DNA of 64,000 nt from Spirochaetia bacterium (GCA_049515135.1 JBEKUJ010000005.1:227252-291251), one strand, 5' to 3'. Shown: positions 23,489 to 54,505, counted from the first letter of the stretch. The notes: a model not told the origin generated them from the letters alone. Numbers and translations are program-made.

Positions 23489-23645
23489 GGTCACCGCATG
23501 CCCCATCCCTGATCATTCACGCTATTATACGAAACATGAATTGACGATGCATCGTTTTCGACGTACATATTTCCTTGGGCGATGGAGTTCACCCTAACCG
23601 CTGCAACGCTGATAACTCCTGATCTCACGGTTAGGAGTCGCAGGC

Positions 23646-24518
23646 ATGCCTCATCCAACCGATGTTCGCCCTCGGGATCCTGCCGAGACATGGGAAATCC
23701 GCTTCACAGAGGCGGAAGGCGGCTCGTACTTTCGAGCCGAGCGCGCAAGTCACCCCTATACTCCGCGTCGCGCGGAAGACATCCCTGCGGGCGCCCTGGA
23801 GTCTGTGGAAGAAGTCTGCGGCATTCGGGATCTGAGCCAGATCTTCATCATCCCGCAGGCGGTGCGTTCCATTGGATGGCTCAGTCAGAAGGTGATATCC
23901 CCCAACAGCGTCCTGGCCATCGGGGATCGGGCGGTCGGTCTCTGGACAGAGAAACCCCAACCGGGAGTGAAGCTCTTGATTCATCTGGAAAGGGTTGCGG
24001 CCATTGAAGACATCACAATCCTTCTCTACGGGAGGCTCAGCTTTGTCCCGTTCGGGGACCGCTTGACGATCCGATACAATACCGTGGCCCGCCAGGAAAT
24101 GGAGCCGGCTCTTCTGGCGCTCAGGAAAAGGTTGGCCGGATCTGCCCAGCAGATGCCTCCGCAAGAATATGCGGATGGTGAGCTGCCTTTCAAATGGAAA
24201 GTCCTGCTCGAGGAGCCTCTGGTCCGACTTGAAAAGGGCTCTCCTGTTGCTTTTTCGTTCGCGCGTGTCCCAGGACGGTCCCGGCATGAGGCTGAACGCC
24301 GGCAACTCCTCGCGTTGAATCCCTTTGAGCTCGTGTATCTGTGCGACCCCACGGAGTCAACGGAACGATATGGGGTGGACTCCCTTATTGTTCCACGGTC
24401 CAGGATAACAGGAGCACGAATGCAGGGAAACGGCCTGGAGGTCAGCTCAAACGGTGCCAATATCCTGCTCTCGATGGCACCCCCACTTCGCGAGGCGGCG
24501 GTTCGTTGGATTGGATGA
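23646..24518 (+). CDS. Hypothetical protein (290 aa)
   Basis: ATG preceded by AGGAG at spacing 8. I recognise no family. Confidence 0.45.
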   Translation: MPHPTDVRPRDPAETWEIRFTEAEGGSYFRAERASHPYTPRRAEDIPAGALESVEEVCGIRDLSQIFIIPQAVRSIGWLSQKVISPNSVLAIGDRAVGLWTEKPQPGVKLLIHLERVAAIEDITILLYGRLSFVPFGDRLTIRYNTVARQEMEPALLALRKRLAGSAQQMPPQEYADGELPFKWKVLLEEPLVRLEKGSPVAFSFARVPGRSRHEAERRQLLALNPFELVYLCDPTESTERYGVDSLIVPRSRITGARMQGNGLEVSSNGANILLSMAPPLREAAVRWIG

Positions 24519-24576: not shown

Positions 24577-24606
24577 TTGACGGAAATTCCCCGCTCATCT
24601 TAGAGT
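24577..24606 (+). promoter_or_regulatory. Putative sigma70-type promoter of eno (TTGACG-N18-TAGAGT), followed by a structured roughly 90-nt leader
   Basis: Hexamers read directly from the sequence. The leader contains hairpins GGGGATGGAGTCCCC and CCTTCATCCGAAGG before the AGGAGG RBS. Confidence 0.3.
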
Positions 24607-24662
24607 GAGGACAGGGGATGGAGTCCCCCCCAATCCAACCGCCTTCATCCGAAGGCCGATGA

Positions 24663-25988
<1,326 letters not shown>

Positions 25989-26004: not shown

Positions 26005-27504
26005 TTAGTCGTTCCCGGTTCCGAAGACTTTCCTGTAGAGATCTTCGCCAAAGCTTGTCTCCAGGGGCTCGCCTTCGAATATCTTGAAAGAGCGGGCTCC
26101 GTTGCTTTTCCTCTCAGCTCGCAGGAAGATGGCGTTTTCCATTTTTCTGTCAAAGAAGCTGTGCGCGAAGTCGTGCAGGTGGGTGACATAGAAAACCCTG
26201 ATCCGTTTCTCCGACAATGCGCGGACAATCTGCCGCGCGATCTCTGAGCCCTCTCTCTCGTTTGTCGCGGCAAACGATTCATTAAAGAGCAGGAGGGAAT
26301 TGGAGGTCAGGTGGTCGACGATCTCGCTCATTCGTTTCAACTCCTCGTCGAGCTTTCCGCTCTTCATCGAGGCGTCTTCTTCCCGCTTGTAGTGCGTGAA
26401 AATTCCATCGCAGACATTGGACCGGAAGGACTCTGCGGGCACGAACATTCCGCATTGCATCATGAGCTGGGCCAGACCGATGGCGCGCAGCAGGGTGGAT
26501 TTGCCTCCATGGTTGGCTCCGGTAATTATCACGAGGGCCCTTCCGTCGGCATTCGTATCGTTGCCCACGACTCTCTGTGCCATATGCAAGGTCAGGCAGG
26601 CGTCGTACAGCCCCCGAAATGACAGACTATTATCGCCGGCCTGGACAGGCTCCGGAAAGGACGTCGGCTCCCCTTTGCCTGCAAGACGGTTGGCGAGGTT
26701 CAAACACCCTACATGGAAGGCAAGCTCTGTTCTCATCATGGTAAAGAAGCTGACAATATGGTCCGTTGACTGCGCAAGCGCGTTGGCAACAAGATTGATG
26801 CCCCGGTCTCGCAGCTCCGACAGCGCCTTTGCCCCGCTCTCATCCCTTTCGCTGATGGAGAACGAATAGGACGGGGATCTCTTCGTAAAAACCCGTTTCA
26901 TCAGGCCCTGCTTGCCGTGCGTCTTGCGAAGCACGTAGTTCCTGCCTTTGTTTCCCTTTCCAAGCTCAGCGCTTATCAGGACCCCATCACGGAAGGCAAG
27001 CGTCTTGAGGTGATGCTGGATGGTGGTGAAATATCCTTCATCCAGCTCCGCTTTGAGCATTGCAAAAAATCTCGTGAACCCCTCAGACACGAACTCATTC
27101 GCATGCTCATCCGCGATGTTCCTGAGTCTTTTGAGTTGACCGACAAACAACTGCAGGACGTCCACCGATCGATGCAGTATCGTTGAGGGATAATTGCTGA
27201 AAATCCCCAGGAAAGTCGTCTTTTCCTTTTCAATGGATTCCACGGCGAGATCATACATCTCGCGGACAATCCCCGGGTTTTTCAGGCAATCCTTCAGGAC
27301 ATCCTGGCGATAGTGGATGGAATCCGCGTCGTTCAAGCTCGAAAGGACAACCTTCCTAGCCACTTCAAAGAGAACCTTGTCGTCAAGCGCCATGGCGGTG
27401 AACAGCGTTTCAAGCTCTAGGTCCTGCGTCAGGGCCAGCTCATTGGATGGCAAGTTCCGTTGGAGGTCAAAGTCCTGATCCTTGTACAGGAGAAAAGCTT
27501 TCAT
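26005..27504 (-). CDS. MutS-domain protein (MutS core and ABC-ATPase domains, no mismatch-recognition domain), paralog 1
   Basis: ALVIITGANHGGKSTLLRAIGLAQLMMQCGMFVPA is the MutS family Walker A context, and FNESFAATNEREGSEIA is Walker B/D-loop-like. Locally reduced GC. ATGA-type overlap with paralog 2. Confidence 0.7.
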   Translation of the reverse strand: MKAFLLYKDQDFDLQRNLPSNELALTQDLELETLFTAMALDDKVLFEVARKVVLSSLNDADSIHYRQDVLKDCLKNPGIVREMYDLAVESIEKEKTTFLGIFSNYPSTILHRSVDVLQLFVGQLKRLRNIADEHANEFVSEGFTRFFAMLKAELDEGYFTTIQHHLKTLAFRDGVLISAELGKGNKGRNYVLRKTHGKQGLMKRVFTKRSPSYSFSISERDESGAKALSELRDRGINLVANALAQSTDHIVSFFTMMRTELAFHVGCLNLANRLAGKGEPTSFPEPVQAGDNSLSFRGLYDACLTLHMAQRVVGNDTNADGRALVIITGANHGGKSTLLRAIGLAQLMMQCGMFVPAESFRSNVCDGIFTHYKREEDASMKSGKLDEELKRMSEIVDHLTSNSLLLFNESFAATNEREGSEIARQIVRALSEKRIRVFYVTHLHDFAHSFFDRKMENAIFLRAERKSNGARSFKIFEGEPLETSFGEDLYRKVFGTGND

Positions 27505-29036
27505 GACAGTATTCGCTCCCTCAGGAAATCGTAGGTCAGCCGGTACTTTTCAGCAAGCGATATCGCGTACGACAGCCCGTCCGCGCGCTTGCGGACGACT
27601 TTGTAGGTTCGAACCGCAGGGTTTCCGGGGTCGACCGTGCTGACCATGCTGACAGTTTTGTCGCTCATGGTGGAGAGCTCATCGATGAAGGTCACGCAAA
27701 TGCACACCAGATCCAGCTGGATTATCCTTTCCATCACTTTCTTGCCCAGGAAGATTGCATCTTTCAGCGTGGTTGAATTGAAGATTTCATTCATGATTAT
27801 GACGCTGTTCGACGTGGCCTCGCGGAGGATGCGATGAATTCGAACCAGATCGTCTTCGAGCTTTCCTCTGAGATTCCTGATGTCTTCTTCCTTTTCAAAA
27901 TGGGTGAACAATTTGTCAAAAAGGAGAAGTCGAACTTCCCTGCCCTGGACAGGACAGCCGAGGCTTGCAAGGTAATGCATCTGCCCGAAGGCGCGGGCGA
28001 AGGTCGTTTTACCGCCCTGGTTCGGACCGGACACGATGAAAATGCGCTCCCTGCCGTTCAGGCAAAAATCGTTGCAGACAGGTGAGGAATCCTCCGCGGC
28101 GAGCTTGCGGGCCAGGGCCAAGTCGAATCCCTCAGAGCAGGAGACTTCCTTGCGGATGTCGGAAACGCTGGGATAGCAGAATTGCAGCCCCACCCGTTTC
28201 ACGCCTGCAATAAAGTCCAGATACGAGATGTAGAATTGTACCTCGCGGTCAAAGGCGGCGACTGTTTCATCCAGGTAGCCGGCGTTGCGAGCGCAGTAGT
28301 CGTCGAGGTCCTGAAATATCTCGGGATGCAGTCGGGCAACCAGGTCCAGCACCTGCGCCTCGACGTGATTCATGTCGGATCCGTTTCGGAACTTTGTCAG
28401 GTAATCCTTGACCGCGCCTTGGTTGAACTTCTCGAATGTCCGTTCCACCTCGGCGCTGTAGTCGATTTCAGACTCATATTTCCGGACCCTGACGCGGCCG
28501 GCACTCACAAGCGTGCAGTATTGCACGGAGGGAAGATCCGCCTGCAGCTTCTTTGTCTGCGCGAGAAGTGAGGAAAAGCCTTCGGATGCGGCGTACCCGG
28601 CAAGATACGTGCAAAAGGACACAAGCCCGCGGGATTTCACTTCAAGGACGGATATGTCGCGCGCAAGGGATTGAACCGCGTCACAATAGATCTCCACGGC
28701 ATCCAGGAACCATCTTTCCTTCTGGCGGGCGTAATGGAGCTTGTTTTCCAGGGCAATGTGCTGGCGCATCGTCTGCATCTTCTGCGCGAATGTCTCTATT
28801 GCCTCATTGATGGGCCTGTTTTCGAGATCCCGCATGACTTCCTGGCGATACAAGATCTCATCGACGTCATTCAGTGAGGTGTGGAAGAACGGCTTCAGGT
28901 TGTATTCGTCCTTGCCGACGGTAATTGCGTCTATGATCTGGTCCAGGTTCAAGTCAACGAAGAAATCCGGCGCTTCCGGAGTTTCTTTGGAGAAGCCGGC
29001 ATCCGTTCTTCTGGAAAGCACGCTGCAGAAAATCAT
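27501..29036 (-). CDS. MutS-domain protein, paralog 2
   Basis: IFIVSGPNQGGKTTFARAFGQMHYLASLGCPVQ (Walker A) and MNEIFNSTTLKDA. Same architecture as paralog 1, first in the pair. Confidence 0.7.
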   Translation of the reverse strand: MIFCSVLSRRTDAGFSKETPEAPDFFVDLNLDQIIDAITVGKDEYNLKPFFHTSLNDVDEILYRQEVMRDLENRPINEAIETFAQKMQTMRQHIALENKLHYARQKERWFLDAVEIYCDAVQSLARDISVLEVKSRGLVSFCTYLAGYAASEGFSSLLAQTKKLQADLPSVQYCTLVSAGRVRVRKYESEIDYSAEVERTFEKFNQGAVKDYLTKFRNGSDMNHVEAQVLDLVARLHPEIFQDLDDYCARNAGYLDETVAAFDREVQFYISYLDFIAGVKRVGLQFCYPSVSDIRKEVSCSEGFDLALARKLAAEDSSPVCNDFCLNGRERIFIVSGPNQGGKTTFARAFGQMHYLASLGCPVQGREVRLLLFDKLFTHFEKEEDIRNLRGKLEDDLVRIHRILREATSNSVIIMNEIFNSTTLKDAIFLGKKVMERIIQLDLVCICVTFIDELSTMSDKTVSMVSTVDPGNPAVRTYKVVRKRADGLSYAISLAEKYRLTYDFLRERILS

Positions 29037-29054: not shown

Positions 29055-30253
29055 TCACGAGCGGAGCTTTCGCCTGGCGACGTGCCAGAACCATGGCACG
29101 GCAGCCAATTGCAGAACCACTGATACGGCAATCAGGGAAACCAGCGAAACGCCGTAGAGAAATCCGAGCGCTGCGCTTCCCAGGAACCAGAATGTGCCGT
29201 ACGCCGCAGTGAACAACCCATATGCGGACGCGCGTCGATTCGAAGCGACCATCGGCGCCACGGCGGCGGGGATGATCGATTCGTGCACGCCCATGCCGAG
29301 CCCCCAGAGAGCCATGCCAATGAGCGCGCCCCAGAAGCCGCCAAGGAACACCAGCGGTGCAAAAAGGGCTGAAGCGATTGTCAGGACGATCAACACACGG
29401 AACCCGAAACGGTCGAAAAGCCGTCCGAACGCCAGTGAGCCAACGCCGCTGACGCCCATCGCCACCGCGTAGAAAACGGGGATGACATCTGATGAAACCG
29501 TCGACGCCTTTGCGAAGTGATATGCAATGAGCGGAAAATCAGCAAACCCGGCTGCGACAAGGGCTGCGCCGGCCAGATAGATCCAGAAAATGCGCGGCAG
29601 TCCCCGCGCCTGGACATCCGAGGTTTTTGCTTCATTTTTTCGGGGTGAGCGTACAGCAGGCGGGCCGTCATCACGAGGCAGAGGTTGATGGCGGCAGGAA
29701 CAACGAGCGCCGCAAACGCGAGGCGATAATCGCCGCGGAGCGCGAGGACCCCGGCAACCGCCAAAGGCCCGAAAAGAGCGCCGAACTGATCAAGTGCCTC
29801 GTGAAGACCGAACGCCCAGCCATATCCCTTCATCCAGCTCCCGGCGTGCGCCAACATGGCATCACGCGGCGGATTGCGGGTGGCCTTGCCCATCCGCTCG
29901 AGGATGATGAGCACCGCAGCCATCTGCCAGTTTCCCGCGAGGGCAAGGAGCGGCACGGAGGCCATCTGGACGACATACCCCGCTATCGTGATCGGCCAGA
30001 ACTTCTGCGTCCGATCGGCAACACGCCCTGAGACCAGCCGCAGGCCGTATCCGAGGAACTCACCCAGCCCGGCCACCACGCCCACGATGAAAGCGTTGGC
30101 CTGCAAGACCGCCAGGAAGGGCCCAAGGATGCTGCGTGAGCCTTCATAGGTGAAATCCGCGAAAAAGCTCAGGATGCCGATCAGGATGACGAACCTGAGC
30201 GCTGTCTTCCTGCCTTCTCTGACTTGCGGCTCGCTCATTTCACTCATGGGCAT
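29055..30253 (-). pseudogene. MFS transporter split by a frameshift at a T6/A6 homopolymer (29634-29639)
   Basis: Listed ORFs 29390..30253 (TM1-6) and 29055..29465 (TM10-12) are in different frames. Reading the second frame upstream gives ...KTSDVQARGLPRIFWIYLAGAALVAAGFADFPLIAYHFAK..., which joins the first half precisely at the GAAAAAATG run. Confidence 0.6.
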
Positions 30254-30689
30254 GCATCTCGCCGCTCATTCCACGATCCACGTATTCCGTGAGTTGGCCA
30301 AGGATCAATTGCAACCCCGCCAGGGCCTGCTTCGTCTCTTGAGCCGCGTCTGCATCGAGGGCGCCATAGTTTCCCAGTCGTTTCGGCTCCACCTCAGCAA
30401 GGGCTATCCAGACGAAATCGAGAGCTACGCGAAATGTCCATAGGCCCCCCTTCGACGGGGCGTCTGGGTGGACCGGAACAGCTTCGAGGAAGCGGCGCGC
30501 GACGCGGCGGAAGGATGCAAGGTAGTCGGCAATAACGCGCCGCTGGGTCGGGCTTACATCGGGCAGGCAGGAAGGAAAAAGCAAGTCTCCGTCCGCTTGT
30601 CCGAGGCCGGCCACCGCTTGCGCCAGAAGCTTGTCAACGTGTTGAAATGCGGCGAGAAGATAACGTTTGTGGTTTTCATTAAATGGCAT
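30240..30689 (-). CDS. Hypothetical protein (149 aa)
   Basis: ATG preceded by AAGGAGG. It overlaps the MFS start, suggesting an operon. I recognise no family. Confidence 0.45.
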   Translation of the reverse strand: MPFNENHKRYLLAAFQHVDKLLAQAVAGLGQADGDLLFPSCLPDVSPTQRRVIADYLASFRRVARRFLEAVPVHPDAPSKGGLWTFRVALDFVWIALAEVEPKRLGNYGALDADAAQETKQALAGLQLILGQLTEYVDRGMSGEMHAHE

Positions 30690-30840
30690 TGCCTCCTTAC
30701 CCCCTCATGCCCCGGCCGCGCAGGCCTCTCACACGGCCAGCTCATCATGTGCTCAGGCATCATCAGCCAGCAGGGCGTTTAACGGAGGAATGCCATCTCC
30801 ACCGCTCAATGTATAAGCAATCAAGACATTGAACAAGAGG

Positions 30841-31476
30841 TTAAAGGCGCGGCTGAGACTTCACGTGGCAAGTCTCGTTCATCGACGCAAGCGAAAAATC
30901 GTTCCCGTCGATCTCGATTTCGCTGACCGCGCAATTGTCTTGCTTGAGATGCCATAGGCGATCGTTTCCCAGGCCCAGGACAACAAGAAGCATTGTCCTG
31001 TTCACGTCGGTGTGCGCCACGGCCACGACCGTCTCACCGGCATGTCGGGATGAGATCTCGGCAAGCGCCGTCACGCATCTCCGGCGGACCTCGTCAAGCG
31101 ATTCGCCGCCCGGCATCTTCACCGTCTGAGGGGTTGTGTACCACGCAGAAAGAAGCTCAGGCCATCGCGCTTTGACTTCACGAGGGGACAGGCCTTCCCA
31201 TTCGCCAAAACTCATGTCGATCAGGGCAGGCAATATCTCAACCGCTAGAGAGAAAGGGCGCGCAATTGCCTTTGCCGTGTCCAAAGCGCGGGAAAGAGGG
31301 CTCGAGTAGATGGCTGTCGGCTTCCATTCCGCTTCGATGCGCCGGGCGGTGAGCTCCGCTTGGCGCACGCCAACGTCGTTCAGCGGAACGTCCGTGTGCC
31401 CCCGGAATCGCTCGTTCACATTCCAATCGGTCTGTCCGTGTCGCACGAGAATGATCCGTGTCCGGTTTTCGCTCAT
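30841..31476 (-). CDS. Histidine phosphatase family protein (phosphoglycerate-mutase-like)
   Basis: ILVRHGQTDWN is the RHG catalytic motif, and there is a later His. Confidence 0.8.
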   Translation of the reverse strand: MSENRTRIILVRHGQTDWNVNERFRGHTDVPLNDVGVRQAELTARRIEAEWKPTAIYSSPLSRALDTAKAIARPFSLAVEILPALIDMSFGEWEGLSPREVKARWPELLSAWYTTPQTVKMPGGESLDEVRRRCVTALAEISSRHAGETVVAVAHTDVNRTMLLVVLGLGNDRLWHLKQDNCAVSEIEIDGNDFSLASMNETCHVKSQPRL

Positions 31477-31829
31477 CGAGGCGTGTCCGTTTTTTCTTGG
31501 ATTCTTGCGAGTATGTGCCTGCTGTCCATATCATTCGGTTTTCGTTCGATGACTTCGACGATGCATCTTCTGGCCTCATCATACTTCCCCATCTTGTACA
31601 GACACCACGCGAGATGTTGGAGGAACATCGGCTCGTAAGGATTCAGATACATGGCCCGTCGGAACTGCGATTCGGCGACATCGAACATTTCTCTCTGCAA
31701 GGCGTACATACCTAGCGAATCGCGGTCATAGCCAAGGAAACGGCTTGGCCGCATCTGCTCTTCTCTGCGTTCGTCCCGGTTTGGACTGACGGATACTTTT
31801 CGCCGCATGGTCACTGACGCAGATGGCAC
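31473..31829 (-). CDS. Tetratricopeptide-repeat protein (small)
   Basis: FRRAMYLNPYEPMFLQHLAWCLYKMGKYDEARRCIVEVIERKPND is TPR-like. A 4-nt overlap with the downstream gene. Confidence 0.5.
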   Translation of the reverse strand: MPSASVTMRRKVSVSPNRDERREEQMRPSRFLGYDRDSLGMYALQREMFDVAESQFRRAMYLNPYEPMFLQHLAWCLYKMGKYDEARRCIVEVIERKPNDMDSRHILARIQEKTDTPR

Positions 31830-31991
31830 GGTATGCGCGGGGACAGCTGACTGTCAACACTTCGCTCTTGACCGCCGCGGAGCTTTTCGATACCTTCGCC
31901 GCAGACAAGTTGGCGATGGGGTTCGCCATAAAAACGCCCTCATGGGGCTGATAACTCCTACCTGACACATTCTGCCAGCTGGAGGAGCTCC

Positions 31992-33197
31992 ATGGAACCG
32001 CTTTTCTTTATTGCCGGTATCTGGCTTTGCATCTCTGTCATTGCAGCAATCATTGCGTACCACCTTGATATCTCGATAGCCCTGGTAGAGATCTGCCTCG
32101 GGGTGGCAGCTGCTGCGATTGCCGACCATTTCTTCGGCAAAGGATCGCTCGGAAGCAGTCAGCCATGGCTGCAATTCCTCGCCTCTGCAGGCGCGGTGTT
32201 GTTAACCTTCCTTGCCGGCGCTGAGCTTGATCCCGCCGTGATGCGCGCGAAGATCAGAGAGGTGAGCATCATCGGGATTGTCGGCTTCCTCGCTCCTTTC
32301 GCCGGGGGGACTGCGGTAGCGAGGTTCTTCCTGGGCTGGTCGATTTCTTCCAGTTTGCTGGGAGGCATTGCTCTTTCCACAACTTCCATGGCAGTGGTAT
32401 ATGCCGTGATGCTGGAGACAGGGCTGAACAAAACGGACTTCGGGAAAGGGATCCTCGGGGCCTGTTTCGTGAACGATCTTGGGACCGTCATCGCTCTGGG
32501 TCTGATGTTCTCTCCGTTCACCTACAAGACGCTCGCGTTCATCGTCGTGAGCGCCCTTGTTATCGGATTCCTGCCCACGGTGACAAAGTTCCTCACTCGC
32601 GTCTACGGCAACAGGACGGCTGCCATCAGGACCAAGTGGATCATCGCCGTGCTCCTGGGGCTCGGGACCCTGGCGTACTGGTCGGGAAGCGAGGCCGTCC
32701 TCCCCGCGTATGTCGTGGGCATCGTGCTGGCTGAGTTCGTCACAGCGGAGCACCTGTGGCTTCGCCGGCTTCGCACGTTGACAACTGGGCTCCTCACGCC
32801 TTTTTATTTCATCCGCGCCGGTTCGTTCATTTCGGTCCCTGCCCTGATTGCCGCTCCGGCGATGGTGCTCATGCTCTTCCTGGCGAAAGTGATCTCCAAG
32901 ATCTTCGGATTATTCCCCCTGATCGGCAGGTTCCGCGGGCAGACCCAGGAACGGTGGTACTACACTCTCATGATGTCGACCGGGCTCACCTTCGGGACAA
33001 TTTCCTCCCTGTACGGGCTGAGCCATGGCATCATCGACCAGGCCCAGTATTCCGCGCTTGTGGCCACGGTAATTGCCAGCGCTGTGATCCCGACTCTGAT
33101 TGCCCAGCGCGCGTTCCTTCCGAAACACCTGCTTGCCCCTGCGGAGTTGAAGAAGCATGTTCTGAGGGTCCCCGAGGGAAGTCCCGCGGACGAATAA
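31992..33197 (+). CDS. Cation:proton antiporter (CPA1/CPA2, Na+/H+ or K+/H+ exchanger family)
   Basis: 401 aa polytopic protein. FLAGAELD and later segments are Na_H_Exchanger-like. RBS GGAGGAG. Confidence 0.75.
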   Translation: MEPLFFIAGIWLCISVIAAIIAYHLDISIALVEICLGVAAAAIADHFFGKGSLGSSQPWLQFLASAGAVLLTFLAGAELDPAVMRAKIREVSIIGIVGFLAPFAGGTAVARFFLGWSISSSLLGGIALSTTSMAVVYAVMLETGLNKTDFGKGILGACFVNDLGTVIALGLMFSPFTYKTLAFIVVSALVIGFLPTVTKFLTRVYGNRTAAIRTKWIIAVLLGLGTLAYWSGSEAVLPAYVVGIVLAEFVTAEHLWLRRLRTLTTGLLTPFYFIRAGSFISVPALIAAPAMVLMLFLAKVISKIFGLFPLIGRFRGQTQERWYYTLMMSTGLTFGTISSLYGLSHGIIDQAQYSALVATVIASAVIPTLIAQRAFLPKHLLAPAELKKHVLRVPEGSPADE

Positions 33198-33202
33198 GAT
33201 AG

Positions 33203-34474
33203 ATGCTGCGGCTGTTCTTTGGCGTTGGCATATTCCTCGCCACTCTCGTCGTCATCGTGGTCAGGCCGTACAGGGTCACCGAAGCCATGGCGTCCGCAGG
33301 CGGAGCTCTGCTCATGATTGCCGGCGGGTTCGTTGGCATTCGCGAGGCGGCTTCCGTGCTGATCGGGCAGTGGAATACTCTTGGATTCTTCCTGGGGTTG
33401 ATGGCCATTTCCGCCGTTGCCGAGGAAGCTGGGGTCTTTGAGACGCTGGCATTCCAGGCTGCGCGGTGGGGGAGGGGGAACTCGACCCGGCTGTACATCG
33501 CTGTTTTTTCCGTCGGGACGGTCATCAGCGCCTTTCTCTCCAACGATGCAACAGCCCTGATCCTTACCCCCGTTGTCTATGCGCTTGTGACACGGCTTCG
33601 CCTTCCCGTTCTCCCGTTCATGTTTGCATGCACCTTCATTGCCGACACGGCCTCCTTCATCCTTCCGGTGAGCAACCCCATCAACATCCTGATCCTGCAC
33701 TCCTTTGGCGGCGGGCTGGTGACCTTTCTTCGCTACCTGGCCCTTCCAAGCCTTGCAGCCGTGGTGCTCAACTGCATCATCTTCCTCTGGCTCTTCCGGA
33801 GCGACCTTGCACAGGACTATTCGCTGTCGGCCCTGCCCGCACCTCGTATTGTTGACACGCGATTCCTTGCAGTCACCGCTTGCATCCTTGCGCTCATCGT
33901 CGTCTCCTACCTCGCGGCTTCCCTGACAGGAGTGCCGCTGTCCTATGTTGCGCTGGGCGGGGGGATCCTGATGGCCGCGGCCGCTCTCCTCCTTCGGCGT
34001 CTCCGGCCGGCAGTGCTGGTCCGAAAGATATCCTGGTCGCTTTTCATCTTTGTCGGAGGCATGTTCATTGTTGTGAAGGCTGTGGAGGACCTGGGGCTCA
34101 CGGCGGCATTCGGGCGCATGCTCCTGGGCCTTGCGGCCGGCCGGCCCCTTGCGGCAGTGCTCCTTGTGGCGGGCGGCACGGCACTCGGCGCGAACCTCAT
34201 CAACAACGTGCCGATGGCCCTGGTAATGACTTCCGCGCTGCATGGCCTCCCGCCTTCATTTACGGGGCACGAGTCGCTTGCGTATGCGGCCATTTTCGGC
34301 GCTGACCTTGGCCCGAACCTCACGACCGTCGGCTCGCTGGCCACCATGCTCTGGCTCCTGATCCTCCGGCGCCGCGGGCTGGAGGTATCCACTCGTCAGT
34401 ACTTCAGGCTTGGCATTACATTCGTCCCGGCGCTCATTGTACTCGGCTCCCTGCTGATATGGGCCCGGTTGTAA
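33203..34474 (+). CDS. ArsB/NhaD-superfamily permease (arsenite efflux / anion permease family)
   Basis: 423 aa polytopic protein. SNDATALILTPV and a repeated two-half topology are characteristic of ArsB/NhaD/CitMHS. Confidence 0.75.
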   Translation: MLRLFFGVGIFLATLVVIVVRPYRVTEAMASAGGALLMIAGGFVGIREAASVLIGQWNTLGFFLGLMAISAVAEEAGVFETLAFQAARWGRGNSTRLYIAVFSVGTVISAFLSNDATALILTPVVYALVTRLRLPVLPFMFACTFIADTASFILPVSNPINILILHSFGGGLVTFLRYLALPSLAAVVLNCIIFLWLFRSDLAQDYSLSALPAPRIVDTRFLAVTACILALIVVSYLAASLTGVPLSYVALGGGILMAAAALLLRRLRPAVLVRKISWSLFIFVGGMFIVVKAVEDLGLTAAFGRMLLGLAAGRPLAAVLLVAGGTALGANLINNVPMALVMTSALHGLPPSFTGHESLAYAAIFGADLGPNLTTVGSLATMLWLLILRRRGLEVSTRQYFRLGITFVPALIVLGSLLIWARL

Positions 34475-34483
34475 GGAGGGGAC

Positions 34484-34957
34484 ATGCGTATCCTGTGCGC
34501 CATAGGCATTCGTCGCGGAGGGGAACTGGTCCGGCGGGTGAGTCGCATCACGCGGACCGGCGATGAGCTGGTCATCGTGCATGTCCTGGAAACCGGCCCT
34601 CGCCATGACCTGAACCACCTGGAAGGCACCATCCGCCCTCATCACGACCATCGGCGGGAGCTTGACGCCGCCGAGCAGGAAGCGGGGGGCGCCGCCCTGA
34701 AGGAAGCTGGCGAGGAGGCAGGCCTGGCGGGGATCCCCGCCACGACCAGGCTGGAACGCGGGAGACCCGAGCAGGTTATCGTGGCGCTTGCGCGCGAGCT
34801 TTCAGCCGATCTGGTGGCCCTGATGGCTCGGGAAATGCCGCACGGACATCCCCTGCAGGGGCCTCCCTCCATCGGCCACACGGCGCGTTTCGTCTTTGAT
34901 CACGCGCCGTCAGACGTGCTGGTCTTCCGCGAGAAGTCAGAACCCCCATGGGGATGA
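34484..34957 (+). CDS. Universal stress protein (UspA family)
   Basis: 157 aa, MRILCAI...ELVIVHV...DLVALMARE...SDVLVF, a Usp-like alpha/beta pattern. Confidence 0.6.
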   Translation: MRILCAIGIRRGGELVRRVSRITRTGDELVIVHVLETGPRHDLNHLEGTIRPHHDHRRELDAAEQEAGGAALKEAGEEAGLAGIPATTRLERGRPEQVIVALARELSADLVALMAREMPHGHPLQGPPSIGHTARFVFDHAPSDVLVFREKSEPPWG

Positions 34958-52115: not shown

Positions 52116-54140
52116 CTACAGCTTCAGCTGCATGCCCGTCACGATCGAGAACGGGGGCATGGGGTAGCCGGGATCGGATGGGCCGAAGCCCGCCTCAGTA
52201 TAGTAGGTTGCGTTCAAAATGTTCAGCAGCTTTATCGAGAAAGACATGCTTTCCGACACCGTGAGCGCATATTCGGCGTTCAGGAGAACATACCCGGGGA
52301 GCATCCATGAGGGGTAATTGACAGGACTGACGAGCTTCCGGCCTACGTACTGCACCTCTATTCCAGCGCTGTTGATCTTGTCTAGGTACCGGGCAGCGAT
52401 GCTCGCATTGTGCACGGGGATATACGGAACCCGCAGGTCGTCGGAAGGGCCGTAGCTCTGCCCAAGGTACTGAAGCAGCAGGCTGTAGATGAAAGTGTAG
52501 CTGGCCTGCAGGGACACCCGATCCGTCAGAGCCGCCGTGGCGTGGATCTCGGCCCCGGGGAGAAAGGATTCCTGGATATTCACGGGCGTTTCGACATAGA
52601 CGGCGGGCTGGCTCGGAGAGTTGTTGTAGCTGCCCCATCCGATCTGGTTGAACAGAAGTCTCGCAAAGACGGCCATCTCGAATGAGAACACCTTGCCGGC
52701 ATGCGCCGCTCCGATCTCACTATTGTACGATGTCTCGGGCTTCAGGCTCTGATTGCCATAAGAATAGTAGGTGTTGCCAGCATAGGAGCCGTCATAAGAA
52801 TACCAGTAAAGATCCTCGAAAGTCGGCACCCGGTATGCGCTGCCGACGGAGGCCTTGAGTGAGGTCACATCCGAGAGAAGGAGCACGGTCCCGATCTGCC
52901 AGGAAAAGGAGCCGGTAAAATCCGAATAATAGTCATAGCGCACCGAGGGGGTGACCATGAGAGGCTGCACGGGGGAGAAGGGCAGTGAGACGAAACCGGC
53001 CAGCGTGAGCCTGTCCTTCTGCGAGGAAAGATTGGTGCTGTCCACAGCCTCATACGACCCTGTGCCTCCGTAGACAGCCGACGCAGCATCAGCGAAGGCG
53101 AACTTCTGCGTGAGATCGATGCTGGCGGCGTTGCCGGTATGGGTGCTGGTGAACGCGGAGGGTTGAACCGGGTTTTGAAGATACTCCGTGGAATATCGAT
53201 ACGAGCCTTTCACGTCCAGCGAGAGCCTGTCATTGAAGAAGCTGCTCGTGCCGTACGAAAATGAGCCGGTCGCGGAAGTATCTTCCTGCGTCTCCTGGCT
53301 GCTGACTCCCAACAGCGAGCCCGGTACGCCAATGAAGGAATGGGTGAATGTGCCCCTGGTGGAGAACGAGCCTCCCAGGAGCGGAAGATCCAGTCCCGCA
53401 TATGCGCTCTGGGCAAGGTCCTGGGCATTGTTCCTCACCCTCCAGTCCCCGAGGTTCGCCGTGTCGTCCCAGACGAAGGCGTTCATTGCCCGGGTGAAGG
53501 AACCACCCCCGGTCAGGCCGACATCGCCCAGCTTGCCGGCAAGTGAAAAGTTCACGTTCTGGTTGTCGAAAAGACTCATGGCGGAGGCGGGGACGAAATA
53601 GCTCCCTGATTCATTGACCCCATTCGCGTCATGGGGAACATAGCTGCCATTCGTAATGGCCAGGTTGATGCCCGGCGCGCCGGCCTTCTTTGTTATGATG
53701 TTGATTACTCCGCCCACGGCGCCGGTCCCCCAGAGGGAGCTTGCGCCGCCGCGCACAATCTCGATGTGGTCGATGGCGTCAACCGGGATCTGTGAGAGGT
53801 CCACGGACCCGTCAAAGCTCGAGTTCAGCCGGTTCCCGTCCACCAGGACAAGGACCTGGGACGACGTGGATCCACGGATGCTGACGGTCTTTGTCTGGCC
53901 CTGAGGACCGTAGTCGTTGACCACGACGCCGCTCTGAGCTGCGAGCACGGCGGAAAGATCAGCGGCGCCGGACTGCTGGATATCCTTGTCAGTGATGACC
54001 GTGACAAAGCTCGGCGAGTTGAGGATGTCGGTGGGTTCCCGGGTGGCAGTGATGACCACCTCCGGCAGCTCGGGCAGGTCTTCCGCCCACGCGCGAGCGC
54101 TCAAGAGGGCCACGGCAAAAAGCGCGATCCTTGTGTCCAT
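52116..54140 (-). CDS. TonB-dependent outer-membrane receptor
   Basis: Signal peptide MDTRIALFAVALLSARAWA. The plug region is VVITATREPTDILNSPSFVTVI...AADLSAVL. A long beta-barrel rich in Y/G/S/T follows. Confidence 0.75.
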   Translation of the reverse strand: MDTRIALFAVALLSARAWAEDLPELPEVVITATREPTDILNSPSFVTVITDKDIQQSGAADLSAVLAAQSGVVVNDYGPQGQTKTVSIRGSTSSQVLVLVDGNRLNSSFDGSVDLSQIPVDAIDHIEIVRGGASSLWGTGAVGGVINIITKKAGAPGINLAITNGSYVPHDANGVNESGSYFVPASAMSLFDNQNVNFSLAGKLGDVGLTGGGSFTRAMNAFVWDDTANLGDWRVRNNAQDLAQSAYAGLDLPLLGGSFSTRGTFTHSFIGVPGSLLGVSSQETQEDTSATGSFSYGTSSFFNDRLSLDVKGSYRYSTEYLQNPVQPSAFTSTHTGNAASIDLTQKFAFADAASAVYGGTGSYEAVDSTNLSSQKDRLTLAGFVSLPFSPVQPLMVTPSVRYDYYSDFTGSFSWQIGTVLLLSDVTSLKASVGSAYRVPTFEDLYWYSYDGSYAGNTYYSYGNQSLKPETSYNSEIGAAHAGKVFSFEMAVFARLLFNQIGWGSYNNSPSQPAVYVETPVNIQESFLPGAEIHATAALTDRVSLQASYTFIYSLLLQYLGQSYGPSDDLRVPYIPVHNASIAARYLDKINSAGIEVQYVGRKLVSPVNYPSWMLPGYVLLNAEYALTVSESMSFSIKLLNILNATYYTEAGFGPSDPGYPMPPFSIVTGMQLKL

Positions 54141-54505
54141 TCGGACTCTCCGGCAGTTCTCCCCGGGCCTTCTTTCCGGATCCTGACAGGATGTGAAAGG
54201 TGTGGTGATGAAAGGCAAAAGACAGCGCCATGCAACCCTTTCCTCGAAGGCACTCGGGTTCCCGGGATCGTCTCCTGGCTCTCGGATCACCTTACTTGCA
54301 GCGCCTTCTCACCCCTCCTGGGACGAGGTGATGGCTGTCAGAACGTCGCCGTTCCTGCTGCTTTCATCCCCGATGACAGTGGCGGGACCGCTGCGGAATT
54401 GCACCGCATTCCGTTGTCCCTGGAACGAACAGCGCAGGTCCTTCATACGTGAATTGCCCCCGCGCGTCAAGGCCGGTTATGATAGGCGGGAAAGGAGGGG
54501 ACCCG

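Follow-up and report, generated by a model that had tools for sequence, protein, structure and literature searches.

A 64,000-nucleotide stretch of DNA from a Spirochaetia bacterium (GCA_049515135.1, JBEKUJ010000005.1:227252-291251), which as a whole is called the window in the following, carries at positions 26005 to 29036 two overlapping genes for MutS-type ATPases. Judging from sequence, this gene pair belongs to MutS4A/MutS4B, a subfamily that was already described by Lin, Nei & Ma in 2007 (PMC2190696). The two genes appear to be the last genes of an operon that is headed by a fluoride riboswitch and that lies in a fluoride-stress island of about 11 kb, and their products are predicted to form a heterodimer. 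We assign a probability of roughly 85% to this reading, which comprises the operon, the family identity, and the heterodimer jointly; the substrate is considered separately below.

The MutS4 pair and its riboswitch-headed operon

As the genes that recur around such pairs form a list that we take to be the fluoride riboswitch regulon, the window was searched with the Rfam model RF01734 (gathering score 34), and all four matches were above that score. The match that heads the MutS4 operon (30747..30809, minus strand, 47.5 bits, E=4.8e-10) is followed by a co-directional string consisting of a 149-aa open reading frame (ORF), a major facilitator superfamily (MFS) transporter gene, MutS4A, and MutS4B, in which the starts either overlap the preceding gene or follow its stop by no more than 18 nt. 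A scan of the island gave no excess of terminator-like sites. The first cistron (30240..30689, minus strand), which belongs to no Pfam family, has a strong Shine-Dalgarno sequence (GGAGG) 7 nt upstream. When the leader is folded without ligand, the minimum-free-energy structure has the aptamer core GGAGAUGGCAUUCCUCC base-paired to the Shine-Dalgarno sequence and the AUG of this cistron (GGAGGCAAUGCCAU; z=-3.1), and we infer from this model the design that would be expected of a translational ON switch. MutS4A has a Shine-Dalgarno sequence of its own, GGGAGG, and starts 18 nt past the MFS stop. The three other aptamers are all on the plus strand and precede the enolase gene (24605..24675, 51.3 bits, E=2.7e-11), a Na+/H+ exchanger operon (31903..31967, 54.7 bits, E=2e-12), and an ORF without family assignment (23569..23628), the last being the weakest of the four with 36.8 bits (37.1 bits with the model R1 described below). 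The four aptamers lie within 8.4 kb, each ahead of a transcription unit of its own, which makes this stretch an unusually dense, textbook-quality fluoride-response island.

MutS4A (27501..29036, minus strand, 511 aa) is the upstream gene and MutS4B (26005..27504, minus strand, 499 aa) the downstream gene of the pair, and they overlap by the 4 nt ATGA at 27501..27504. A preliminary description of this DNA, made from the sequence alone, had correctly recognized both ORFs with their overlap, as well as the Walker A motifs, which are GPNQGGKTT in MutS4A and GANHGGKST in MutS4B. The MutS_V ATPase domain (PF00488) was the sole Pfam match of both proteins (residues 334-497 of MutS4A and 325-474 of MutS4B, with E values across the two proteins of 2.6e-17 and 4.3e-24), and MutS_I (PF01624), MutS_II (PF05188), MutS_III, MutS_IV, and Smr were absent from both in Pfam, even at E<=1. 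The view that mismatch-recognition and Smr/nuclease domains are missing is therefore upheld. The description had further expected MutS_III and MutS_V as the only Pfam domains, of which MutS_V was found and MutS_III was not. The "MutS core" that it had attributed to both proteins is something that sequence cannot demonstrate; profiles of the N-termini had no match in the PDB. The NCBIfam models of MutS1, MutS2, and KamC aligned only to the C-terminal 190-240 residues, and their scores were far under the cut-offs. The MutS alignments began only near residue 223 of MutS4A and 260 of MutS4B and covered the last lever segment together with the ATPase domain. MutS1 models scored 65-83 bits (cut-offs 480-642), the MutS2 model TIGR01069 scored 79.6 and 49.6 bits (cut-off 400), and the KamC model NF052383, which covered the ATPase region only, scored 84.5 bits with MutS4B and 38.7 bits with MutS4A (cut-off 300). 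MutS4A and MutS4B share 23% identity, and hhalign shows that the N-terminus of one is homologous to that of the other (97%, E=7e-11).

The catalytic motifs were compared by alignment over 65 orthologous pairs. The Walker A Lys is invariant in both proteins. Walker B is Asn-Glu in both subunits and not the canonical Asp-Glu (Asn416-Glu417 in MutS4A and Asn408-Glu409 in MutS4B), with Asn in 65 of 65 sequences of each; the assignment follows from the alignment of FNES in MutS4B to LDEV in Taq MutS. The H-loop position is occupied by Phe in MutS4A (Phe450) and by His in MutS4B (His442), again in 65/65 cases each. Because the Walker B Asn is invariant in both subunits and the H-loop His is lost in MutS4A, the motifs suggest an asymmetric heterodimer, and their pattern predicts two non-equivalent ATP sites with unusual coordination of Mg2+. 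To our knowledge, every ATPase of the MutS family functions as a dimer in which the ATP sites are composite, which is a further reason to expect a heterodimer. Lebbink and colleagues reportedly found in 2010 that, with Asn in place of the Walker B Asp, E. coli MutS coordinates Mg2+ less strongly and its hydrolysis is slowed. The signature of the catalytic sites is sharply conserved in MutS4A/B and may possibly be of relevance to Mg-fluoride chemistry.

MutS4 has been defined by an ATPase domain (MutSac) that is the only recognizable one, and by adjacent A and B copies in which the stop of A overlaps the start of B (PMC2190696). The pair of the window has the ATPase domain only, consists of adjacent paralogs on the same strand, and shows the overlap of the A stop with the B start. 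Thermoanaerobacter is on the list of MutS4-positive organisms, an example being Thermoanaerobacter tengcongensis (PMC2190696), and the full-length identity to the pair of Thermoanaerobacter sp. A7A (locus L007 of our set) is 66%, so that orthology with the Thermoanaerobacter MutS4 pair is very likely at the sequence level. The name "mismatch-repair MutS" in the public database entry of the protein is a mislabel. The preliminary description had regarded paired core-only MutS paralogs as lacking an assigned function. This is correct as far as a molecular function is concerned, and no functional study of fluoride-linked MutS proteins was found in the searchable literature, but such pairs are not undescribed (Lin 2007; Weinberg 2010).

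In 2007, MutS4 was reported from five distant bacterial species and a few archaea, horizontal gene transfer was suspected, and the family was described as less conserved than MutS1 (PMC2190696). For each of the two proteins, databases now contain full-length homologs with 65-80% identity in more than 8,000 clusters, which come from Spirochaetia (including a 100% identical protein from a metagenome-assembled genome), Moorella, Thermoanaerobacteraceae, Chloroflexota, Thermodesulfobacteriota, Verrucomicrobiota, and others. A scan with one genome per species detected the pair in at least 595 species, which represent nearly all bacterial phyla, as well as in a metagenome-assembled genome of Woesearchaeota (L083). 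Both A and B were present in 84 of 84 fetched related loci, and the overlap is ATGA in 59 and GTGA in 4 of the 66 loci that hold both complete genes. Conservation across phyla, determined with the same loci, is 59% and 61% for the MutS4 pair as compared to 58% for enolase. MutS4 also occurs on 46 plasmid records, 21 of them conjugative, and homologs of MutS4A were found on 18 Klebsiella plasmids as well as on several Citrobacter, Enterobacter, and Salmonella plasmids. On the clinical K. pneumoniae IncFII plasmid NZ_CP147604.1 (L089, 78500..83641), a riboswitch (56.6 bits), a cation:proton antiporter, Usp, MutS4A, and MutS4B form a cassette that adjoins IS26 and a P-type ATPase. The search for phage-borne MutS4 copies yielded no real phage match.

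Riboswitch linkage, neighboring genes, and base composition

The comparison set comprised 85 MutS4 loci from nearly all bacterial phyla. Rfam identified 19 fluoride riboswitches in eight of eight test loci, and these 19 together with the four aptamers of the window were used to build the covariance model R1 (23 aptamers). In the MutS4 loci, which amount to 1.49 Mb, R1 gave 185 matches, and the approximately 52 kb of the window that lie outside the island contained none. In 47 loci, a plus-strand match immediately precedes MutS4A, a number that rises to 50 once three over-extended ORF starts are corrected, and in 19 further loci there are only co-directional genes between the riboswitch and MutS4A. 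Overall, 66-69 of the 85 loci (about 80%) have a riboswitch in the MutS4A/B leader, and about 50 of 85 have one with at least 30 bits. The association agrees with the description of the crcB motif, which was linked to mutS, ion-transport, and formate-hydrogenlyase genes (Weinberg et al. 2010, PMC2864571) and later shown to sense fluoride (summarised in PMC5533749). Family (2007) and riboswitch association (2010) are hence already known, and the locus of the window is an ordinary member.

Several points speak against the assignment of the pair to a riboswitch-controlled operon. In the window, two genes and 1.7 kb separate the riboswitch from MutS4A, and there may be an internal promoter. Scans of the island for sigma-70 promoters and intrinsic terminators remained at chance level. 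In about 20% of the loci, no riboswitch was detected in the leader. Finally, the searchable literature holds no expression or phenotype data for any MutS4 pair or for this organism.

Neighboring genes were recorded by their presence within +/-10 kb after clustering of the ORFs; counts of immediate neighbors were set aside, as the simple gene caller produced spurious ORFs. The most frequent group, with 42 of 85 loci, consists of dynamin-like GTPases, DUF6062 proteins, and an N-domain of about 150 aa, with the dynamin-like GTPases recurring in 28 loci. Enolase follows with 27/85, MFS transporters with 22/85, and DUF190 with 17/85. A Complex-I/[NiFe]-hydrogenase-like module of NuoH/K/L/CD/B type is present in 11-18 of the 85 loci, depending on the subunit, CrcB and a Na+/H+ exchanger in 12 each, a histidine phosphatase in 11, Usp in 10, and HEAT-repeat proteins in 8-10. 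In 10-12 loci, as well as on the Klebsiella plasmid, the pair is accompanied by the Na+/H+ exchanger and Usp. As the enolase and MFS genes that flank the pair are concerned, they appear from their genomic context to belong to the same regulon as the pair and to be functionally linked to it.

Two of these neighbor groups deserve a separate remark. The dynamin-like GTPase, the Cys-rich DUF6062 protein, and the N-domain near the pairs are often located behind a fluoride riboswitch of their own; examples of dynamin-type neighbors are found in the loci L055 (16973..19063), L068 (18141..20360), and L001 (13064..15599), and a literature search on DUF6062 found no entries. The Complex-I/[NiFe]-hydrogenase-like membrane module comprises NuoH, NuoK-like, NuoL-like, and NuoB-like proteins and a fused NuoC/D with similarity to the NiFe large subunit, and it is likewise often found behind a fluoride riboswitch (L002, L011, L024, L028, L033, L036, L039, L051-L053, L080, L082, L084, and others). 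This module is probably the "formate hydrogen lyase" of Weinberg et al. 2010.

Within the island itself, the 149-aa first cistron of the MutS4 operon is a stand-alone copy of the N-terminal domain of the dynamin-like GTPases of other fluoride loci, with family members in 19 loci; its BLAST matches are stand-alone proteins of about 145-205 aa and the N-termini of dynamin-like proteins of 696 and 739 aa. The MFS_1 gene (29055..30253, minus strand) consists of two halves, both of which match PF07690; they are separated by a fixed frameshift of 1 nt within an A6 run (29635..29640), in the central loop between the six-helix halves. An assembly artefact was ruled out as the cause, as the frameshift is identical in four independent assemblies. 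The split gene could be a pseudogene, encode two half-transporters, or contain a slippage-prone site, and intact MFS orthologs of about 400 aa stand beside the pair in 22/85 loci. On the other side, the enolase gene (24699..25988, plus strand, 429 aa, Pfam Enolase_N and Enolase_C) and MutS4B are convergent with 16 nt between their stops, which leaves no space for a conventional bidirectional terminator outside of coding sequence. The preliminary description had placed the pair between a glycolytic gene and a broken transporter gene. Position and frameshift were seen correctly, but the two flanking genes are recurrent partners and not unrelated genes.

The remaining genes of the island lie further outward. 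Directly behind the weakest of the four riboswitches, there is an ORF of up to 290 aa (23646..24518, plus strand; 237 aa according to another gene caller) that matches no Pfam family and has no homolog in the 84 other loci; by its position, it is a candidate fluoride-response protein. Upstream of the operon riboswitch, Pfam identified genes for a TPR protein (118 aa) and a His_Phos_1 phosphatase (211 aa) at 30841..31829 on the minus strand, ahead of which no riboswitch was detected. The operon behind the riboswitch at 31903..31967 encodes a Na_H_Exchanger protein (401 aa), an ArsB/CitMHS-type transporter (423 aa), and Usp (157 aa) at 31992..34957 on the plus strand, as assigned by Pfam and gene calls of the same organism. 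No gene for a CrcB or CLC-F exporter was found inside the block. Elsewhere in the window, and unrelated to the pair, a cobalamin riboswitch (RF00174, 67.9 bits, 54248..54437, minus strand) lies upstream of a 724-aa ORF (52116..54290, minus strand).

The base composition concerns the island as a whole. The content of guanine plus cytosine (GC) is 0.535 in MutS4B, 0.540 in MutS4A, 0.578 in enolase, and 0.617 in the entire window, and the corresponding values at third codon positions (GC3) are 0.686, 0.695, and 0.709 for the three genes. The ten genes of the block at 23.6-35.0 kb have a GC of 0.581 as compared to 0.627 in the other 35 genes of the window (p=5e-4), and a GC3 of 0.682 as compared to 0.746 elsewhere in the window (p=0.0035). 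Codon position 2 accounts for most of the deviation in the two MutS4 genes (0.36-0.37, z about -2.5), which reflects their amino-acid composition, and their GC3 is only about one standard deviation low. The dip in GC that had been noted earlier is therefore real, but it is smaller than the hand counts of 43% and 57% in the pair and of 62% in enolase had suggested, and the compositional shift, which had been thought to be confined to the two genes, spans about 11 kb. A sharp boundary of foreign DNA around the two genes can be ruled out, as the dip is island-wide and in the MutS4 genes mostly due to the second codon position. This composition fits an old and largely ameliorated acquisition of the whole island together with a strong constraint at the protein level.

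An acquired accessory module, as had been proposed, is a reasonable view in light of the patchy spread, the at least 595 species, the 46 plasmids, and the shifted GC and GC3 of the island, and the pair is supported as an accessory module with a history of horizontal transfer. A general syntenic linkage to eno within the lineage had been considered as an argument to the contrary. In 27 of the 85 loci, which are spread across phyla, enolase is indeed no more than 10 kb away; this proximity reflects shared regulation and not a lineage-specific core synteny.

Possible functions of the MutS4 heterodimer

A mechanism that would combine these aspects starts with a rise in cytoplasmic fluoride, upon which the aptamer would fold and the sequestered Shine-Dalgarno sequence and AUG would be freed, permitting expression of the operon. 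Translational coupling would yield A and B in a ratio of about 1:1, and the two would assemble to an asymmetric MutS-type heterodimer, in which the ATP site built on B would keep the H-loop His and the site built on A would have Phe. The ATP-gated lever or clamp would bind nucleic acid, plausibly DNA, via the basic tip of B, and it would stabilize or process this nucleic acid while fluoride poisons Mg2+-dependent enzymes, with no recognition of mismatches and no nuclease of its own. Such an ATP-gated nucleic-acid clamp, most plausibly on DNA, is the role that we favor, at somewhat less than even odds. MutS4B contains a conserved basic patch (residues 166-210, net +5) within a predicted beta-insert between long helices. 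The enolase-level conservation across phyla and the presence in archaeal hosts argue for a universal target of the pair. A hint to a MutS4 layout of lever, clamp, and ATPase comes from the AlphaFold2 model of MutS4A, as the best target-normalized Foldseek scores were obtained with the MutS2 core region of about 480 aa.

Other observations do not favor a nucleic-acid clamp. Both MutS4A and MutS4B are acidic overall. A PDB search with profiles of the N-terminal 315-320 residues of A and B gave no match at E<=10. The AlphaFold2 models, which were based on alignments of 30 sequences, were poor (pLDDT 55.9 and 47.8), and Foldseek with the better model, that of MutS4A, returned only MutS-family chains with TM-scores of 0.2-0.34. 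Moreover, there are MutS-family ATPases with substrates other than DNA, namely MutS2 on ribosomes (PDB 7qv3) and the KamC reactivase of NCBIfam.

Instead of being a generic paralog from DNA repair, the pair could also be an ATP-driven machine that is specific for fluoride, either as a clamp that works despite trapping by Mg-, Al-, or Be-fluoride or as a KamC-like reactivase. The invariant Walker B Asn and the missing H-loop His in A could keep the clamp working when ordinary Mg2+-dependent NTPases are trapped. We regard such a specialized machine as unlikely. If true, it would represent a new cellular strategy against fluoride beside export, enzyme over-production, and pH homeostasis.

In the reactivase variant considered by itself, the heterodimer would use ATP to strip dead-end Mg-fluoride-phosphate or metal-fluoride-nucleotide complexes off poisoned enzymes such as enolase. 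The analogy is to KamC, which we take from its NCBIfam name to be the reactivase of lysine 5,6-aminomutase. KamC is of the same length class (the model has about 508 aa) and gave the best NCBIfam similarity of the MutS4B ATPase domain (84.5 bits), but this score is far under the cut-off of 300 and concerns the ATPase only, and no kam genes are present in the island. Enolase is the most frequent enzyme among the neighbors (27/85 loci), but its proximity is explained by shared regulation, and 58 of 85 loci have no adjacent enolase. The N-terminal halves without detectable DNA-binding MutS domains and the enolase-like conservation, which would fit a universally conserved protein target, are in line with a reactivase; the literature search yielded nothing on KamC. 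On balance, we consider a reactivase to be rather improbable.

It is similarly doubtful that the pair is a MutS2-like ribosome or RNA factor, which would sense or split fluoride-stalled ribosomes, for example those with translational GTPases trapped by metal fluorides. With the MutS4A model, Foldseek ranked a collided-disome structure with MutS2 of B. subtilis first, and the MutS2 core regions with the best normalized scores are of the same size, but the model is of low confidence, with TM-scores that do not exceed 0.34. The dynamin-like GTPases in 28 loci and the basic patch of MutS4B would fit a ribosome factor. The pair does not have the KOW and Smr domains of MutS2, however, and the occurrence in archaea (PMC2190696; L083) argues for a target common to both domains of life, such as DNA.

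A horizontally acquired defense or DNA-surveillance module between unrelated genes, which is what the preliminary description had in mind, is very improbable, and neither PADLOC nor the neighborhoods give support to a role in DNA surveillance or against mobile elements. The module is accessory and mobile, as at least 595 species, 46 plasmids, and the modest shift of GC and GC3 indicate, and ABC-type ATPases are frequent in defense systems. The PADLOC similarities are weak, however, and restricted to the P-loop (E>=2e-4 for MutS4B, none for MutS4A). The recurrent neighbors are genes of the fluoride regulon and not defense genes, and a fluoride riboswitch heads the operon here and in about 80% of the loci. 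There is no nuclease or other effector domain, phage-borne copies were not found, and the enolase-level conservation is unlike that of fast-evolving defense genes. Canonical or back-up mismatch repair, to which the MutS_V domain and the source annotations would point, is the least probable of all, as MutS_I and MutS_II are absent, the scores of 65-83 bits compare to MutS1 cut-offs of 480-642, and no mutL-like partner is among the recurrent neighbors.

The locus of the window corrects two misreadings, the label "DNA mismatch repair protein MutS" and the interpretation as a defense island. Few members of the fluoride regulon are as widespread and as conserved as MutS4A/B, which is also found on conjugative Klebsiella and Enterobacter plasmids. 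The new detail is the combination of an invariant Walker B Asn in both subunits with an H-loop His in B only. This asymmetry of the motifs, the strict coupling of A and B, and the existence of culturable and plasmid-borne carriers offer concrete handles on the biochemical function. Among the culturable carriers are Neomoorella glycerini, Thermoanaerobacter, and Paraburkholderia phenazinium LMG 2247.

Comparison with known systems

The fluoride riboswitch regulon was reportedly described by Baker and colleagues in Science in 2012. The island shares with this regulon the presence of RF01734 in the 5' leaders of mutS-like, ion-transporter, enolase, Usp, and formate-hydrogenlyase-like genes as well as the ON-switch logic (PMC2864571). 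It differs in that the pair is two genes behind the aptamer, that four aptamers are clustered, and that no crcB or CLC-F gene is in the island. In Enterobacter cloacae FRM, experiments have shown that an eno/gpmA/uspA/ppaC/crcB island under riboswitch control makes the cells resistant to fluoride, with a 176-fold induction of eno (PMC5533749). A riboswitch-activated enolase, a phosphoglycerate-mutase-type phosphatase, and Usp on a horizontally acquired island are common to this island, GI3, and that of the window. GI3 has crcB and ppaC and no MutS4 pair, whereas the island of the window has MutS4A/B, the Na+/H+ exchanger, and the MFS gene, with crcB and ppaC not being in the block.

As to the MutS family, MutS2 forms homodimers and carries KOW and Smr domains at its C-terminus, whereas MutS4 is a predicted two-gene heterodimer with no nuclease. 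The Walker B motif of MutS2 is the canonical Asp-Glu, whereas it is Asn-Glu in both MutS4 subunits, with no H-loop His in A. The MutS2 core (PDB 7vuf, 9kce, 7qv3) resembles MutS4 in its length of about 480-500 residues, in having no mismatch-binding or connector domain, and in the long helical region with a small beta insert that precedes the ATPase. KamC (NF052383) is similar in its length of about 500 aa and its C-terminal MutS-type ATPase, and differs in that the scores are low, the alignment covers the ATPase only, and no kam genes are nearby. Eukaryotic MSH4-MSH5 is a heterodimer of divergent MutS paralogs without domain I that acts as an ATP-gated clamp on non-mismatch DNA. It differs from MutS4 by its recognizable domains II-IV, is specific for meiosis, and is unrelated to fluoride.

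With MutS4 as described by Lin et al. 2007, the pair of the window shares the single detectable domain, the divergent adjacent paralogs, the overlap of stop and start, and the patchy spread that hints at horizontal gene transfer. There is no structural difference, and the 2007 paper had no fluoride context. Five bacterial species and a conservation below that of MutS1 in 2007 now stand against at least 595 species and a conservation at the level of enolase.

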